Assembly: GCA_016840095.1 (NCBI GenBank)
Contig: JAEOSZ010000108.1
Location: forward strand, 1 to 21,595
Length of the DNA: 21,595 nucleotides
Direction of reading: 5' to 3'
DNA from: Candidatus Heimdallarchaeota archaeon
GTDB taxonomy: Archaea > Asgardarchaeota > Heimdallarchaeia > Heimdallarchaeales > Heimdallarchaeaceae
The position numbers and the translations under genes were made by a program. Under the pieces are notes generated by a model. It searched no databases. It saw nothing but the letters and a program-made list of their open reading frames with translations, and was not told where the DNA came from. Below, one piece after another: positions 1-15,454 of the stretch. The stretch's first letter is position 1. The number at the start of each line of letters is the position of its first letter.

Positions 1-114
1 ACCAATTATTGTTGGAAAAACACTTCTTGGTTGATCCTCGCCTGCAAAACCGTTCTTTGTAAAACCTGTACCGTTATCTATAACCAGCGGTTTATTTTGA
101 ATCATCTCTTCCAT
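1..114 (-). CDS. Actin (Asgard actin, Lokiactin-like), 5' end only, truncated by window edge
   Basis: Not in the ORF track. The reverse complement of 114..1 reads [38 protein letters not shown], which matches the actin phosphate-1 loop (eukaryotic [29 protein letters not shown]). An SD-like AAGTGA lies just upstream of the ATG. Confidence 0.96.
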
Positions 115-185
115 AGATATCACTTTTTACTAGTTTTTATTGAATCCAAATTTAGGTTTGGTCTTATGGATTCTTAACCTTGAAG

Positions 186-202
186 TATATATTAAATGTT
201 TT
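186..202 (-). promoter_or_regulatory. Putative BRE/TATA for the actin gene
   Basis: Minus strand reads AAAACA-TTTAATATATA about 70-90 nt upstream of the actin ATG. The AT-rich context makes this uncertain. Confidence 0.35.
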
Positions 203-339
203 GATAGTTTTAGCCGCAATGACATGAACACTATCGTAGCTTTTATAAGCGAATTACAAGATTCTACAACGTTACAAGCGCTAGTTCCATCTAGAATAAA
301 TAATTGTTTTTTAATAAAAAAGGATTCAGAGTATTAGAA

Positions 340-1332
340 CTATAAACTACCATAATAAAGTAGATTTTCTCTAATCTCTTCTTCACTGAATCCTGCACTA
401 ATACCAACAATGATTCTAATCACATCCATTGTCTCTGCTAATTTCAATTCAAAGAAACCAATTAAGGCATCCATTTGAAGTACTGTTCCATATCTAAACG
501 TTTTCTTCCAATAATTCAGTAGATATCTTTCAACTGCAAATTCTAGCTCATGAAGAGGAACTTCTTTGGCACCAATATATTGTGCAAAAACTGTTCGATA
601 AGGAGTATAGTTATATCTCTCTAGAACTTCTTGAATACTTGAAGCATTGAGTCCTTTTGCAATGAAATTATTGGGTAAAATATATCGATATGCTGGGACT
701 CCCAAGGCAATACATCTACAGAGTGCTAGAATGTTTTTCATATTGACATATTTTTCATAGTGTTTCGATACTTTTGGAAGGATGCTGTAAACGTATTGAT
801 CAATAGCTGATTCCAAAGGAGTAAATCTGCCACTAGTCTTAAATTCCTCATTTGCTTTCCTTAGATATCTTTGTAAAATTTCATTCTTCTGGATTGAAAT
901 TATCTCATCAATTGATAGATTCATTAACCTCGAGTAGTAATCAATGGAATAATCAGCTACAGGAACTAGACGAGATAGTATCTCCTCATGCTTCATTCCC
1001 CTATAGTTACCTTGGAGCACTATTCGAAGATTTTCTGCATTGTATCTTTCACTGTAGTTCCTAAGTTTTTTCTTGACTGAAGAGCCTGCTTGTTTATAGA
1101 ACTTCAATAACAATTCAGAATAGGAATTTTTGAGATTTCTTGCTACATCTGAGATTTGGGTTTCAAAATTCAAGTCTCCAATTATAGCATCGTAAGAAGT
1201 TTGAGTAAAAGCTGCTCGTAGCTCTGTCAAATTTTTGGAAGATAATAACAGATTAATCTGAGATTTTGTTAGGAAGTTACCAATAACTCCATGAGCTCTT
1301 CCTAATATGTAACTTATATCTCCAACCGACAT
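340..1332 (-). CDS. atpC: A/V-type ATPase subunit C (V0 subunit d, vATP-synt_AC39 family)
   Basis: 330 aa. N-terminal YILGRAHG...LTKSQINLLLSSKNLTELRAAFTQTSY and C-terminal FFELKLAETMDVIRIIVG...SEEEIRE match the AhaC/NtpC/Vma6 pattern. Starts 1 nt after the subunit I stop, implying translational coupling. Confidence 0.88.
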   Translation of the reverse strand: MSVGDISYILGRAHGVIGNFLTKSQINLLLSSKNLTELRAAFTQTSYDAIIGDLNFETQISDVARNLKNSYSELLLKFYKQAGSSVKKKLRNYSERYNAENLRIVLQGNYRGMKHEEILSRLVPVADYSIDYYSRLMNLSIDEIISIQKNEILQRYLRKANEEFKTSGRFTPLESAIDQYVYSILPKVSKHYEKYVNMKNILALCRCIALGVPAYRYILPNNFIAKGLNASSIQEVLERYNYTPYRTVFAQYIGAKEVPLHELEFAVERYLLNYWKKTFRYGTVLQMDALIGFFELKLAETMDVIRIIVGISAGFSEEEIRENLLYYGSL

Positions 1333-1333
1333 T

Positions 1334-4300
1334 TTAACTACCTTTTTTTGGAACGAAATTTATGGCAACTAGTTTCTCTTTCAATGGTATGAATTCCTTT
1401 CCATCTCCTGTATAAAACTTTGTAAACCATTCTACCCAATGAAGCCTTAGTGTATTAAGGAAAGAAAGCAGCCCCTCTAATGGTAAGATAATACAGATTG
1501 CGAGCACTATTCCTACAATCCACCAAACCCATGAAATCATAAGTGCAGAAGCATAATGTCCATGTATTAGTCCTCCGAAATGACTCAAATCAATATGAGC
1601 AACATCTAGAAATGCTCCAGAGAAAGTTGATACCCCAGCTAAAAGATCTGTGCCTGTTAAAGTGAAAGGTAAACCACTTAGGATTGCATGAACTAACAGA
1701 AGAGCCATCAATCGACTGAAAGAAAGTGTGTTTGATATCAAGGCTAAAACATGATCTATTGCATCCATAATACCTTCTGATTTCGCATGTATATATTCCA
1801 AGACAAATAATACTGGAACTAACCCAACGAAATATACCAACCAAGATGGTAATGGCGGAAGCGTAAAGTGAAAAGCATGCCATACAATTCCTTCTCCAAC
1901 AATGATGTTGAATAGCAATGCGAATATTCCTACATAGACGATAGATAATGAAAGTGGAGCTCCCCATGAGGCAAATCCATGACCATATCTAATATTCTGA
2001 TAAACTTTCAACAAGACACCTAATTGGATCATTAGAAAACCTATTGTCAAAGCAACAATTAGGAACAGTTTTGTTTCATGTAGAGGATTAATGATTGGAA
2101 TCCAGTCAACACCTATTTTATGCATTAGATCTGGGATCAAATGCTCATCACCAAGTATTGAACCAAAGAAGAATCCAAATATCGTTGAGGATAATCCACA
2201 GAAGAGAAGAAGTTCCGCACCAGAATAAAGGTAACCTGTCATAGATTCGTCTGGCTCAATCTTATTCTTCTTTTTCTTATAGAGTAGGAATCCTGCTATT
2301 AAAGCTAACATGATTCCGTGACCAACATCTGCAAACATAATACCAAATAAAAATGGAAATGTAAATCTAATAATTGAATAGGGATCAACTTGCTTTGGAT
2401 TTGGTTGGCCTATACCACCAATAATTCCTCTAACTGCACCAAATACTTTTCCTCTTTTTGTAATTGCAGGATTAACTAGAGGAACATCAGGATTTTCTGT
2501 GATTTCTAAATCAAATGGTAAAGAATCCTTGCTCTTCTCTAGTTGTTTTAGACCTGCCTTAGAAATCCATCCCCAAAGGACAATCTTCCCTTCTGAAACC
2601 TGACACAATTCAAGTGAACTAAGTCTATTGTTCTCTACAGTAATAAGTTCTTCACAAGCCTTTAGTTTGCTTATGACAGAATCCTTTATGTTTTCAAGGG
2701 TTTTTTCTTTTTCTAAAAGCTCTTTTTCAAGTTCTTTCAATGTATCTTTCAATGAAACCTTTCTTTCTATTAGAGACAGATCTGATTCAATTGATTGAAA
2801 TGAATACTCACCCAATACACGAGAGATAGCTGTTTCGTATTCTTTCAAGGAGAGAACTAAGATATTTCTATCATTTGAACTTGAGTCTGTAGGCTCTGAG
2901 TCCCAAAAAATGAGATTATTATCAGTGACTTCATTCAAAAAGAATCTTACAGATTTTAGATTTGATTCAGGGATTACACCTAGGTGAGTAACTGTCTGAA
3001 ACCCACTTTGTAGTAGTACTGCATCTATCCCTCTATCTTGTAAGCCTTCTTCAAAAGGAAGAGATAGTTTTATCTGATCGCGTTTTCTTCTAATGTCTTC
3101 TACTAGTGAAAAAGAAGCATCAATTTTTTCTTCATTTTCACGTAGGAAATTTTCTATAAAGGCTTTTGAGTGTTCATAATCATCTACTATTTGAAATTGT
3201 TCAGGTTTATGATCTTTAACATCTTTAACTTTCAGAATATTAGATAATTTATTAATTCGAGCCTGATATTGGTTTAATTCTCCTCTCTGTTTAGAAATAT
3301 CCTCTAAGATATTATCGTTTAGAGATCCAATTTTTACAGGATGTACTGCATTAAGTGAGTATAAGTGTGATATGAATTGACGTGAAAACTTTTCTGGGCT
3401 TTCTAATCTAACAAAAAGAGATTTCTTTGCAAAAAGAAATCCTTCTCCTCCTCCTGAATGTGGTGGATGAGGAATGTGTTTTTCCAGCTCTTTTTCATCA
3501 CTCTTTGGTAATTTTTGTAGAAGTAATTCTTGTTCTCTATCTCTCTCTTTTTTACGAGATAATGGGACGTCTTCTAAAATAGTAACCTTGCTCTCAAATT
3601 CTAGAGATTCTATTTCACTAACAAATAATGAATAATCTTTTGAAATTACCCAGCCCCATAGAGTAAAGTTTTTGGTGGTTGTACGACCTTTTTCCTCTAA
3701 AGACAGAGTTTCATGAGTGGCTTTAATTAAAGTTAAATGATATCTTATTATCTCAGATAATTCTTCAGATAACACAGCAATATCGCTGGCTAATTTTTCT
3801 ATATCTTTAGTTACTTCCGAATGAAGACCTCCAATTTTTGTTGTTTTCCTTATTTCTTCTAAAGATTTGAGAATATCAAGATCAAACTTTGTTTCATCAA
3901 AATAATTCTCTTTTAGAATTTCAAGGATCCTATCCTTATAATCAATTAATGAGATACAGAGCATTACTTTCTTTTCTTCATCTTCTGTAGAGGTACTCCA
4001 TAAGAACAATTTTCCTGCAGTAATCTCATTAAGATAGAATTGGATAATTTCTTCATATGAACCATGAATCTCTCCTAGTACTGTGAATGTTTTTGAACCT
4101 GAAGATAATAGATCTATAGAAAATTCATCATCTATCTCACTTTGAAATTGTTTTAATGAAGAGAGAATTCTATTTTCTTTTTCTAATTTACTTAATTCAC
4201 TATTTTTGTTGTTTATTTGTTCTTCATATTCTTGGAGAAAATTATCCAGATTCTTAGTAATATCTTCATGATTTTGAACAAGAGCTAAATCATTCTCTTT

Positions 4301-4528
4301 TAGTGGTGGTAGATCTTCCAATTTAACGCTTAGAACATTTCCCAAATTCACTATTCTTTTCCACCTATCCTCCAAAATATCTTTAGTTGACTGTATTCTT
4401 GCTTGTTCTTTAGGACTCTGAGGATCTACAATTATCTGTTCATAAATATCAAGAGAGGATATCTTAGCCAATAGTGCATATGTATTTTTGACAGGTATCT
4501 GAACTTTTACTAGTTTAAACTTCGTCAT
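1334..4528 (-). CDS. atpI: A/V-type ATPase subunit I (V0 subunit a) with tandemly duplicated N-terminal cytoplasmic domain
   Basis: C-terminal membrane domain has FPFLFGIMFADVGHG, ISNTLSFSRLMALLLVH (essential Arg) and EGLLSFLNTLRLHWVEWFTKFYTGDG. There are two copies of the soluble domain, each ending in LWGW (residues ~291 and ~652). SD GGTGG lies upstream. Confidence 0.93.
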   Translation of the reverse strand: MTKFKLVKVQIPVKNTYALLAKISSLDIYEQIIVDPQSPKEQARIQSTKDILEDRWKRIVNLGNVLSVKLEDLPPLKENDLALVQNHEDITKNLDNFLQEYEEQINNKNSELSKLEKENRILSSLKQFQSEIDDEFSIDLLSSGSKTFTVLGEIHGSYEEIIQFYLNEITAGKLFLWSTSTEDEEKKVMLCISLIDYKDRILEILKENYFDETKFDLDILKSLEEIRKTTKIGGLHSEVTKDIEKLASDIAVLSEELSEIIRYHLTLIKATHETLSLEEKGRTTTKNFTLWGWVISKDYSLFVSEIESLEFESKVTILEDVPLSRKKERDREQELLLQKLPKSDEKELEKHIPHPPHSGGGEGFLFAKKSLFVRLESPEKFSRQFISHLYSLNAVHPVKIGSLNDNILEDISKQRGELNQYQARINKLSNILKVKDVKDHKPEQFQIVDDYEHSKAFIENFLRENEEKIDASFSLVEDIRRKRDQIKLSLPFEEGLQDRGIDAVLLQSGFQTVTHLGVIPESNLKSVRFFLNEVTDNNLIFWDSEPTDSSSNDRNILVLSLKEYETAISRVLGEYSFQSIESDLSLIERKVSLKDTLKELEKELLEKEKTLENIKDSVISKLKACEELITVENNRLSSLELCQVSEGKIVLWGWISKAGLKQLEKSKDSLPFDLEITENPDVPLVNPAITKRGKVFGAVRGIIGGIGQPNPKQVDPYSIIRFTFPFLFGIMFADVGHGIMLALIAGFLLYKKKKNKIEPDESMTGYLYSGAELLLFCGLSSTIFGFFFGSILGDEHLIPDLMHKIGVDWIPIINPLHETKLFLIVALTIGFLMIQLGVLLKVYQNIRYGHGFASWGAPLSLSIVYVGIFALLFNIIVGEGIVWHAFHFTLPPLPSWLVYFVGLVPVLFVLEYIHAKSEGIMDAIDHVLALISNTLSFSRLMALLLVHAILSGLPFTLTGTDLLAGVSTFSGAFLDVAHIDLSHFGGLIHGHYASALMISWVWWIVGIVLAICIILPLEGLLSFLNTLRLHWVEWFTKFYTGDGKEFIPLKEKLVAINFVPKKGS

Positions 4529-6843: not shown

Positions 6844-7701
6844 GTGTTTACATTAGATTTGATTGTCACTGGTAAGCAAGCTTCATTGGATTTTGAGGTC
6901 GGTTTAGTTTCCACGAGTAATAAATTCATTTTAGTAGATAGTTTAATTCAAGAATTAGATTTGTCACCTCTTTCAAAGTGCAAAAATCTACAAGAAGTAG
7001 TTCTTAGTTCGAACCATCTTACTGAGATAGATTTGAAACCTTTATCCAACTGCAAGAAACTTCAAAAATTGGATATCAGTCACAATCAGCTTCTCACAAT
7101 TGATTTGACACCATTAAGTAAGTGTACTAGTCTTGAAGTTGTATATTTTCAAAATAACCTTCTAAGTGAGGTTGATCTCACCCCTCTTCAGTTTATCAAA
7201 GAGCTTAGAGTTATTAATTTAGATTATAATTTACTTAATAAGGTTATTCTACCAAAGAACACTCAGTGGGACAATGTGGAAGAGTTAAGACTCTATAGTA
7301 ACTATCTTGAGAAAATTGACTTGAACGCACTTGAACAATGTAAAAAAATACGAGAAATTGATTTAGGGGATAATTTACTTTCTAAGATAAATTTGAAACC
7401 ATTCTATAATTATACACAAATTAATTCAATATCTTTGGAGAGAAATAAGTTAAAAGAAATCGATTTAAGTTCTTTGGATAAAAAACAACATTCCTATGTA
7501 TTATGCACAGATCCCAATGTTAAGTTGAAGAGATTTGATAAAGGAACTAAGATGGATAAAGCAAAGATAGTCTATTCTAAGGGTGAATACTATAGTGAAG
7601 AGCAAGAGCGTGTAATTAATCAATTTCTTAATTCTGAGAAGGAAGAAAAAAGACTTCAAAGAGATTACATATTGAATAAAACTTCTAAAAAACTAAATTA
7701 A
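6844..7701 (+). CDS. Leucine-rich repeat protein (24-residue repeats)
   Basis: Seven consecutive 24-aa repeats of consensus LxxIDLxPLxxCxxLxxLxLxxNx (e.g. LTEIDLKPLSNCKKLQKLDISHNQ) plus a partial eighth. The GTG start overlaps the SD GAGGTG, so the true start may be TTG at 6859. Confidence 0.9.
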   Translation: MFTLDLIVTGKQASLDFEVGLVSTSNKFILVDSLIQELDLSPLSKCKNLQEVVLSSNHLTEIDLKPLSNCKKLQKLDISHNQLLTIDLTPLSKCTSLEVVYFQNNLLSEVDLTPLQFIKELRVINLDYNLLNKVILPKNTQWDNVEELRLYSNYLEKIDLNALEQCKKIREIDLGDNLLSKINLKPFYNYTQINSISLERNKLKEIDLSSLDKKQHSYVLCTDPNVKLKRFDKGTKMDKAKIVYSKGEYYSEEQERVINQFLNSEKEEKRLQRDYILNKTSKKLN

Positions 7702-7732: not shown

Positions 7733-8119
7733 TCACATACCAGCCAGAACTTCGACTGTTTCTGGTACATATCTCTTAATAACTTGCATTGCTAAACCTA
7801 CATTATGTAAATCTCTACTAGCACCAATTAAGATGTATTCACCCGCACTTGCTAGTATTGTAAACCCTTCTTCTCCTCTGATTAAAACTTGTTCCAAATC
7901 TCCATGTGCAAGATTTCCAGTTACCATTTTCCCTGTGGATAAGATTGCTGAAGAAACTGCACTTAGTAAATCAGGATCAGTTCCTTTTTCAGAAAAGAAA
8001 GCAACTTTTATTCCTTCAGCGTTTACAACTGCTAAAGCTTCTAGGTCACATCCTAAAGAGATTTGTTTTAGTATTCTTACTAATTGTTTTTTTTGCGCAG
8101 CTGATAGATCAATAGACAT
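7733..8119 (-). CDS. Roadblock/LC7 (MglB/LAMTOR2-like) domain protein
   Basis: 128 aa with ALAVVNAEG...DPDLLSAVSSAILSTG...GDLEQVLIRGEEGFTILASAGEYILI, the typical Robl_LC7 pattern. SD GGTG. Confidence 0.9.
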   Translation of the reverse strand: MSIDLSAAQKKQLVRILKQISLGCDLEALAVVNAEGIKVAFFSEKGTDPDLLSAVSSAILSTGKMVTGNLAHGDLEQVLIRGEEGFTILASAGEYILIGASRDLHNVGLAMQVIKRYVPETVEVLAGM

Positions 8120-13707: not shown

Positions 13708-14010
13708 TTAAAATACCATTAGAATAGCAACTAGCAATCCATAGATAGCTACAGCTTCAATAAGTACTATGAAGAGAAAGGCTTTTCCAAAAACCTCTGG
13801 TTTTTCTGTAATTGCTCCTATAGCTGCACTACCTGCCATACCCATGCCTATAGCTGCTCCTATACCAGCTATACCAACAGCTAATCCTGCACCAATTGGG
13901 CCTAAGTCTCCTGGTTCCGCAGCAAAGACTGAATTAGCAGCTAACATCACTAAACTAGTCAAGAGCCCTAGTAGGGTCCATCTTCTTGTTGATTTATTCT
14001 TAGAACGCAT
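13708..14010 (-). CDS. atpK: A/V-type ATPase proteolipid subunit K/c (single hairpin with N-terminal leader)
   Basis: GAGLAVGIAGIGAAIGMG Gly-rich helix, EKPE loop and LIEAVAIYGLL with the ion-binding Glu. N-terminal signal-like leader ends VFA|AE. SD GGTG. Confidence 0.95.
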   Translation of the reverse strand: MRSKNKSTRRWTLLGLLTSLVMLAANSVFAAEPGDLGPIGAGLAVGIAGIGAAIGMGMAGSAAIGAITEKPEVFGKAFLFIVLIEAVAIYGLLVAILMVF

Positions 14011-14172: not shown

Positions 14173-14787
14173 ATGTTTCGAGACTTTATGGGATGGCTAT
14201 TAGGTACAAAGAAGAGCCCTCGTGACCACATTATTAATCTTCGACTAACAGTAAGAAGATTAGAAAGAGCACAAAGAAAACTTGCTCGTGATGAGTCAAA
14301 AATGCAACTGAAAATGAAGCAAAGTATTCAACGAGGAGATTTGGAATCTGCAAGGTTATTCGCAACAGATATAGTTCGTAGTAGACGATGGGAATTTGGA
14401 TATCAAAAACTAGTTTCCCGAATGAATGGTCTAATTTTCAAACTCGAACGAGCAGATACTGCAGCCAGTATGGCAGAAGAAATGCATGGTATAGCCAATG
14501 CGTTAAGAGCAGCAAATGCTCAACTTCAAATTCCGGATCTAGATAGAGTGATTCAAGACATGGAAAGCTCAATTGATGGTATAGAAGAATCAACAGGAAC
14601 CATCGAGGATGGTATTGATGATTTGCTAATTGCTGATTCTGATCCAGCTGAAGTCGATAGATTGATTGAACAAACAGCTGCTGAATTAGGTGTTTCTACT
14701 CAAGCTGGCTTACCAACAGTTGGTGTTGTGCAGACTGATGACTTAGAGGAAGAAATCCAAAAATTAAGAAGACGAGAAGAGGATTAA
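14173..14787 (+). CDS. ESCRT-III subunit, Vps2/24/46 (CHMP1-3) class
   Basis: Snf7-family helical hairpin LRLTVRRLERAQRKL...GDLESARLFATDIVRSR. N-terminal amphipathic MFRDFMGWLLG, EVDRLIEQTAAE, and C-terminal MIM1-like DDLEEEIQKLRR. Confidence 0.93.
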   Translation: MFRDFMGWLLGTKKSPRDHIINLRLTVRRLERAQRKLARDESKMQLKMKQSIQRGDLESARLFATDIVRSRRWEFGYQKLVSRMNGLIFKLERADTAASMAEEMHGIANALRAANAQLQIPDLDRVIQDMESSIDGIEESTGTIEDGIDDLLIADSDPAEVDRLIEQTAAELGVSTQAGLPTVGVVQTDDLEEEIQKLRRREED

Positions 14788-14800
14788 AAGGTGATTATAA

Positions 14801-15454
14801 ATGGTTAAGAATTGGCTTTTTGGAAAGAAGAGAAAAGAAGATGCAGATGCATTAGCTACTCTCAAAGGGCAACAAAACAGATTACAAGCTGAAGCTAGAA
14901 ATCTTGAAAGACAATCAGATGAACAAAAAATCTTAGCCTCAAAAATGCTCAAAGCTGGTAACAAAGCTGGAGCAAGACAAGCTCTTAAACGAAGAGCTGT
15001 TTTCATGAAAAGATTAAATACAGTTCATAACACAGCGATGAATCTTCAAGCTCAAATTGACAGCATACAAACAGCTACTTCAACAGCAGAAACTGTAAAA
15101 GCAATGGAGCTTGGTACAAAAGTTGTTGGGGAGAAAATAAAAACTGTATCTCCAGAAAGGACAGAACGTGTTATGGATTCTGTTATGGAACAGAGAGACC
15201 AAATCGAAATGATGACCGAAGCTCTGTCTGATCCAAGTTTATCTGAAGGTATTCTAGATTTTGAAGATGATGCTGCAATTGATGAGCAATTAGCTCAATT
15301 AGAAGCTGAGATGGATTTAGGTACAACTACAAGTTTACCTGATGTTAGCGGTCTTCCATCAACTCCAGTAGGAACAAGTGAGACTGAAGATACATCAGAG
15401 CTTGAAGCTGAGCTTGAAGGCTTAAAGAAAAAAATGAGTGAAGATAAGCAATAA
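14801..15454 (+). CDS. ESCRT-III subunit, Vps20/32/60 (Snf7/CHMP4-7) class
   Basis: MVKNWLFGKK N-terminus, GNKAGARQALKRR, NLQAQIDSIQTA, DEQLAQLEAE, MIM2-like LPDVSGLPSTP and C-terminal ELEAELEGLKKKM. SD GGTGA. Confidence 0.94.
   Translation: MVKNWLFGKKRKEDADALATLKGQQNRLQAEARNLERQSDEQKILASKMLKAGNKAGARQALKRRAVFMKRLNTVHNTAMNLQAQIDSIQTATSTAETVKAMELGTKVVGEKIKTVSPERTERVMDSVMEQRDQIEMMTEALSDPSLSEGILDFEDDAAIDEQLAQLEAEMDLGTTTSLPDVSGLPSTPVGTSETEDTSELEAELEGLKKKMSEDKQ

Follow-up and report, generated by a model that had tools for sequence, protein, structure and literature searches.

What might a rotary ATPase gain from a second stator arm? The question is raised by a stretch of 21,595 nucleotides from Candidatus Heimdallarchaeota archaeon (GenBank assembly GCA_016840095.1, contig JAEOSZ010000108.1, positions 1 to 21,595; hereafter the window), in which a gene on the minus strand encodes a V-type ATPase subunit a/I carrying two complete tandem stator domains, that is, two copies of the cytoplasmic N-terminal domain of subunit a (a-NT). 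Prokaryotic subunit I, as known from Thermus thermophilus (6r0z/6ly9, chain N) and Meiothermus ruber (I-NT, 3RRK), shares with this Heimdallarchaeaceae protein a two-lobed arm ahead of a C-terminal proton channel, but it measures 650–700 aa and has a single arm, whereas the protein described here reaches 1064 aa with two arms in tandem. That length, already reported in an initial annotation made from the DNA letters alone, follows from translation of the open reading frame (ORF) at 1334–4528, and the range 2460–4528 singled out there corresponds to residues 1–690, namely to both arm copies. The gene and its parts, in window coordinates, are as follows.

1334..4528, minus strand: whole gene for V-type ATPase subunit a/I, 1064 aa (P0001), from the ORF list with its translation and Pfam PF01496.
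3554..4528, minus strand: copy 1, cytoplasmic a-NT domain, residues 1–325, the extra and faster-evolved copy, from the fold model, alignment with the Vph1 N-terminal domain and dN/dS.
3434..3553, minus strand: linker, residues 326–365, from the predicted local distance difference test score (pLDDT) and the alignment of 29 homologues.
2459..3433, minus strand: copy 2, a-NT domain, residues 366–690, membrane-proximal and more conservative, from the start of the Pfam match, profile scores and alignment with 3RRK.
1334..2458, minus strand: membrane (proton-channel) domain, residues 691–1064 plus the stop codon, from phmmer against the PDB and the invariant R939.

BLASTP aligned residues 1–360 with residues 361–720 over 322 residues at 25% identity (E = 7e-17) and an offset of 361–366 residues, and every block that the initial annotation had quoted in favour of two tandem copies about 361 aa apart was found aligned. 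That annotation had also proposed profile alignment as a check on the repeat, which bears it out: copy-1 and copy-2 sub-alignments cut from an alignment of 29 full-length homologues gave profiles (29 homologues each) that matched one another with a probability of 99.95% (E = 7e-38) over 319 columns. The PF01496 (V_ATPase_I) score of the protein is 138.8 bits against a curated cut-off of 30.7, with the match confined to residues 399–792 and the C terminus, while a Pfam scan of residues 1–365 on their own matched no family. Current annotation conceals the doubled arm because Pfam sees one domain only.

The link of the two copies to a-NT structures comes through structure comparison only, as searches of PDB sequences with the copy-1 and copy-2 profiles gave nothing significant (best E 0.063 and 0.36). 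An AlphaFold2 model of copy 1, built from the copy-1 alignment (pLDDT 85, predicted template modelling score (pTM) 0.75), shows the same order of secondary-structure elements as copy 2 in the full-length model, and a predicted architecture of proximal lobe, helical hairpin and distal lobe is found in each. N-terminal domains of subunit a rank first among the Foldseek matches of copy 1 (E = 4e-12, TMq up to 0.65), including Thermus subunit I and the Meiothermus domain 3RRK, and a-NT chains are also at the top of a second structure search that is independent of Foldseek. VIA-align superposes the copy-1 model on yeast Vph1 with Z 18.5 and a root mean square deviation (rmsd) of 4.3 Å over 305 residues, on Thermus subunit I (6r0z_N) with Z 16.2 and on 3RRK with Z 10.8; copy 2, taken from the full-length model, aligns with 3RRK over residues 370–674 (Z 10.6). 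Small ferredoxin-like proteins match each lobe of copy 1, the distal lobe comprising residues 146–213. The proximal lobe is formed by both chain ends (PstA, Z 9.5, model range 4..330), and both termini of the a-NT domain can thus be placed in it, because the ferredoxin-like match there spans both ends of the domain.

Between the copies, the alignment of homologues shows a stretch of variable acidic and basic residues and, after it, the conserved motif [HY][IV]PH..H.G...GG (conservation 0.64, against 0.50 in the variable part), from which the chain enters the first strand of copy 2; residues 329–368 have pLDDT < 50 in the full-length model and are predicted to be disordered. The charged linker of the initial annotation was found in its place, as the stretch HIPHPPHSGGGEG (residues 351–363, nucleotides 3440–3478). 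Downstream of copy 2, the membrane domain matches eukaryotic subunit a in the PDB with E = 6e-19 (phmmer) and is more distant from prokaryotic subunit I (E 4e-8 to 1e-3, the former for the Enterococcus protein). R939, invariant in the 29 homologues, aligns with the essential proton-path arginine of the ISNTxSYLRLWALSLAH motif, held in human a4 by the stretch ISNTASYLRLWALSLAH, and E1018 and R1028 fall inside an EGL..FL..LRLHWVE motif.

The doubled form occurs in a single archaeal family. A word-indexed protein search with the N-terminal 720 residues returned 31 relatives, 28 of them 1036–1076 aa long and the others 711, 902 and 936 aa (one labelled partial), and the named relatives are all labelled Heimdallarchaeota or Heimdallarchaeaceae save one 'Asgard group' and one 'Thorarchaeota' entry. 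Exhaustive searching of 1.84 billion cluster representatives with the copy-1 profile yielded only 28 proteins: four full-length doubled forms, a fifth of 801 aa whose cluster holds a 1066-aa member, a few fragments, and for the rest single-arm proteins of 615–719 aa. Across 83 genomes of the class, two matches within one frame of 1043–1071 aa were present in 28 of the 30 Heimdallarchaeaceae genomes, spanning four of the five genera and including two single-contig genomes; the other families of the class had no doubled form among these 83 genomes, only single-arm forms of 684–732 aa or no match. We found no description of this layout in the full-text literature on V-ATPases of Asgard archaea or Heimdallarchaeia, subunit a and peripheral stalks, and the doubling is apparently undescribed so far.

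Quick maximum-likelihood trees, with Shimodaira–Hasegawa-like approximate likelihood ratio test (SH-aLRT) support, suggest how it arose. In the arm-domain tree, the copy-1 clade (SH-aLRT 100) is sister to the copy-2 clade (91) with support of 95, to the exclusion of all single arms, which score better with the copy-2 than with the copy-1 profile (128.6 versus 87.8 bits for P0042). In the tree of membrane domains, which includes few eukaryotes, the doubled forms (100) and the heimdallarchaeial forms with a single arm (90) are sister groups, joined at a node with support of 99. The three eukaryotic subunit a sequences fall outside this combined clade, and the other subunit I of the same genome lies in the opposite half of the tree, beside a Caldarchaeales sequence and within a group that includes bacterial V/A types. 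The simplest reading is one tandem duplication of the whole arm in the stem of the Heimdallarchaeaceae, which these trees place after the split of the eukaryotic lineage.

In all complete homologues copy 1 is fused to the membrane subunit, and no split or free-standing copy 1 was found: every short or split form proved to be a frameshift, a chimera or a truncation. P0070 (778 aa) and P0069 (297 aa), at 877–4057 of locus L015, were considered as split copies and rejected, as they are the pieces of a single gene, interrupted by an overlap or frameshift that falls within the membrane domain and not between the copies; this doubled gene, from a Heimdallarchaeaceae metagenome-assembled genome (GCA_054384195.1), is called as two overlapping ORFs, owing to a frameshift, a sequencing error or a pseudogene. 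P0039 (322 aa), a candidate stand-alone copy 1, lies on a contig of 2.25x coverage, is unrelated in sequence after about residue 285 and is probably chimeric, while of the candidate short forms P0061 runs off its contig, and P0037, on a 1055-base contig and starting at profile position 62, is likewise read as truncated. P0102 (830 aa, with an N-terminal part of 514 aa) has no internal repeat and was dismissed as another doubling, and forms of 759–816 aa have their insertions within the membrane domain.

Purifying selection acts on both copies. Mean pairwise identity is 0.48 in copy 1, 0.53 in copy 2 and 0.70 in the membrane domain, and the corresponding ratios of nonsynonymous to synonymous substitutions (dN/dS, Nei–Gojobori) against the closest orthologue, in genome G008, are 0.105, 0.081 and 0.036, with dS of 0.8–1.0 in this pair and near saturation in more distant ones. 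Copy 1 retains 34 invariant columns among 29 sequences whose identity falls as low as 41%, some of them in copy-specific motifs such as VDPQSPKEQARIQ at residues 34–46. The lobes are more conserved than the helices in both copies and are the most conserved parts of copy 1 (distal lobe 0.70, helices 0.52–0.57).

The doubled subunit belongs to a second rotary ATPase with scattered genes, a layout resembling that of eukaryotes. The genome (3.44 Mb, 165 contigs, 89% complete) holds two sets of rotary ATPase genes. One is a classic cluster on contig C95 (21.3–30.6 kb) with A, B, D, E, I (687 aa) and a four-helix c, alongside C/d, F and an H-like gene. The other is dispersed, with doubled a, d and a single-hairpin c in the window, A, B, F, a G-like gene and D on contig C104 (19.4–32.1 kb) and E on contig C14 (62.9–63.5 kb). 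Two further features of the window thus come into play.

340..1332, minus strand: subunit d (archaeal C/AC39), 330 aa, from Pfam PF01992 (E = 2.4e-31).
13708..14010, minus strand: single-hairpin proteolipid subunit c, 100 aa, from Pfam PF00137 (E = 1.1e-20), presumably part of the scattered set.

Subunit d starts one base past the stop codon of the a gene, and this a–d pair recurs in loci L005, L006, L015 and L016. Eukaryotic subunit a is by far the better-scoring match to the membrane domain of doubled a, well ahead of prokaryotic subunit I, while the classic paralogue scores about equally against both. Genes for the E and G subunits of the scattered set are present in 29 of the 30 Heimdallarchaeaceae genomes, and the remaining one (G005, 89% complete, genus g4) lacks E, G and doubled a together, a co-absence that argues for these proteins working together and suggests that the whole second ATPase was lost in genus g4.

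On the basis of these observations, we propose that the doubled subunit a forms a longer collar that would offer extra docking sites to E/G stalks, a reading to which we give a probability of roughly 0.5. The number of peripheral stalks is treated as a hallmark of rotary ATPases, with one in F-types, two in A-types, joined by the appendage of subunit a, and three in eukaryotic V-types, joined by that appendage together with a connector subunit (PMC3639240). In the Heimdallarchaeaceae enzyme, copy 2 would keep the ordinary role beside the membrane domain and bind a pair of E/G peripheral stalks through its two lobes, as the Thermus arm does, and the flexible tether of about 40 residues would hold the proximal lobes of the two copies side by side. 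Because both ends of an a-NT domain lie in the proximal lobe, the arm of copy 1 could then run the other way round the collar, adding one or two lobes at which stalks could dock. One such lobe, placed under the third B subunit, could receive a third E/G stalk, or existing stalks could be anchored doubly; the outcome would be a stiffer stator, in which the role of eukaryotic subunit C is reached independently by a fused paralogue. A stronger version, which we put forward only tentatively, is that this enzyme could have a closed, three-stalk collar like that of eukaryotes, a first among known prokaryotic rotary ATPases, attained convergently through a fused second a-NT, and that it might also be coupled to actin, the latter because the main actin gene stays beside the a gene throughout the Heimdallarchaeaceae.

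The initial annotation had likewise suggested that the extra copy could add stator sites. Docking of further stalks is a plausible function, the conserved lobes of copy 1 speak for it, and co-folding with E and G favours it weakly: copy 1 with residues 1–110 of E and the G-like protein, using family alignments, gave a median score of 0.32 where the best of three controls gave 0.00, with runs agreeing in at least 83% of contacts and a partner pLDDT of at least 79. Several points weigh against the proposal. In calibration, 58 of 80 solved complexes attained the pass mark, as did 2 of 110 mismatched pairs, but passes at 0.60 or below came from just 7 of those 80 complexes and from both of these mismatches; a pass at that level would more often be wrong than right unless the interaction was likely beforehand. 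It may also reflect memory or likeness, as complexes of a-NT with E/G are solved. The relative placement of the two copies is left unpredicted (full-length pTM 0.41, linker pLDDT < 50), and the scattered set has one E and one G gene, a count uninformative on stoichiometry. The G-like protein itself (P0073) has faint Pfam V-ATPase_G_2 matches in 17 of 29 members (best E 0.0014) and no sequence match in the PDB, and its putative identity is drawn from size, composition and position beside F. Finally, the stem branch of copy 1 after the duplication is 1.22 in the arm-domain tree, that of copy 2 is 0.39, and evolution some three times faster is compatible both with a changed function and with a retained one.

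The same long branch (1.22 versus 0.39) would likewise fit a copy 1 that is no stalk anchor but a docking or regulatory module, one that tethers the pump to some other partner, for instance actin filaments, membrane-remodelling proteins or lipids. This is the principal alternative, somewhat doubtful to us yet deserving to be taken seriously, as copy 1 has invariant motifs of its own, including the one cited above, and actin adjoins doubled a in five of five family genomes and lies elsewhere in five genomes with a single a-NT; the a-NT of eukaryotes has, moreover, been described as a regulatory hub (PMC10313074). Adjacency of genes is not binding, however, and related genomes are not independent samples, while conservation follows one pattern in both copies, with lobes above helices, and co-folding with E/G lent weak support to stalk docking rather than none. 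Copy 1 could instead work inside the complex, as a brake or as an element of assembly, touching d, the rotor or copy 2 so as to control coupling, in the way that a-NT contacts d in the autoinhibited Vo complex of yeast or that subunit H works in V1. The best structural matches of copy 1 are indeed the a-NT domains of free, autoinhibited yeast Vo (8eas/8eau, Z 18.1–18.5, rmsd 4.3–4.5 Å), holoenzyme states fit worse (rmsd about 7 Å) and the 40-residue tether would permit movement; but the conformation of an AlphaFold2 model is no evidence on a functional state, and the sequence data hold no sign of regulated disassembly in archaea. We regard this role as improbable.

Ancestry is a separate matter. 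Eukaryotic V1 subunit C and a-NT have an elongated two-lobe architecture in common, Foldseek matches the copy-1 model with yeast subunit C (Vma5, 1u7l) at E = 2e-7 and a probability of 1.00, and the membrane domain has better scores with eukaryotic a than with prokaryotic I, all of which might be taken to mean that doubled a is a precursor of subunit C, through duplication of a-NT and later fission on the way to eukaryotes. The initial annotation had held that the extra copy could model how subunit C arose in this manner, and as literal history we consider it very unlikely: the doubling occurs in one family only, copies 1 and 2 are sisters to the exclusion of all single-arm forms, the three eukaryotic sequences fall outside the doubled-plus-single clade (in a quick tree with few eukaryotes), and no split form was found. 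The comparison of copy 1 with Vph1 and Vma5 points the same way, with Z 18.5 to a-NT and 8.3 to subunit C (7u4t_O, rmsd 10.6 Å; TMq 0.23 for 1u7l), and by its predicted structure copy 1 belongs with a-NT, not with C-like folds. Pfam scans of the whole protein and of residues 1–365 gave no match to PF03223 (Vma5); a search of the entire genome for the same family was silent too, as were the control genomes, which makes it uninformative. Subunit C is accordingly a parallel and not a descendant, and the analogy of a collar enlarged with a second a-NT-like module stands as a fair one. As for the doubling being an artefact of assembly or annotation, or copy 1 a decaying relic, nothing beyond the lack of a Pfam match in copy 1 speaks for either, and both are refuted: the copies are only 25% identical and cannot result from repeat collapse or expansion, the reading frame is uninterrupted in 28 genomes, closed ones among them, dN/dS is about 0.1 and copy 1 folds confidently.

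Among known systems, eukaryotic subunit a (yeast Vph1/Stv1, human ATP6V0A1–4) provides the best structural match of copy 1 and the best sequence match of the membrane domain, with which it has the essential arginine and the LRLHWVE motif in common, but it has one a-NT, its extra collar element being the separate subunit C, whereas doubled a has two a-NT domains fused. Subunit C (Vma5, 1U7L) is an elongated two-lobe connector that docks E/G stalks and completes the three-stalk collar, and resembles copy 1 at the level of the fold; it is, however, a separate and releasable polypeptide where copy 1 is fused, and its match lies far below that of a-NT (rmsd > 10 Å) without any sequence relationship. 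The single-arm V-type a subunits of other Heimdallarchaeia (P0042, 674 aa; P0085 of Heimdallarchaeota LC_2, 712 aa) form the sister clade and occur in the same a–d pair outside an operon, with an arm nearer to copy 2 than to copy 1 and with no adjoining actin gene seen.

The locus thus offers a natural experiment in enlarging the stator collar, in an archaeal family with eukaryote-like actin, endosomal sorting complexes required for transport (ESCRT) and scattered ATPase genes. If there is a third stalk, the three-stalk design would have evolved at least twice, each time reusing the same a-NT-like module, and these archaea would provide a tractable system for testing what extra stalks are used for; if copy 1 binds another partner, it would be a novel way of tethering a proton pump.

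Several neighbouring genes merit a record. Upstream of doubled a lies a gene for an unrelated solute-binding protein. Between the a–d pair and an ESCRT island are genes for a 285-aa leucine-rich-repeat protein (6844–7701, plus strand) and a Roadblock/LC7 protein (7733–8119, minus strand). Subunit c, which has a 35-residue N-terminal extension resembling a signal peptide or an extra helix (…LVMLAANSVFAAEPGD), stands back-to-back with two ESCRT-III (Snf7) genes (14173–15454), a position that it also occupies in L005 and L006. On contig C104, a 99-aa two-helix membrane protein is encoded directly after the F and G-like genes (26237–26536, minus strand; L017 38–337), with a near-threshold match to Pfam DPM2 (26.2 bits against a cut-off of 27.3), and may be an accessory membrane subunit or an unrelated gene.

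The best-scoring actin gene adjoins the doubled a gene in all five Heimdallarchaeaceae genomes checked, in two arrangements, either co-directional after d, as in the genus of the window (G023, L005/L006 and the window itself), or divergent upstream of a, as in three other genera; the related contig L015 has the same actin linkage. In the five single-arm genomes of other families actin is found on other contigs than a, and in L016 none lies within 10 kb of it. In the window, a true actin gene occupies positions 1–114 on the minus strand, 225 bp downstream of the a–d pair, and actin likewise stands beside doubled a at L005 14417–15553, L015 1–224 and G006:C1:1612889–1613995.

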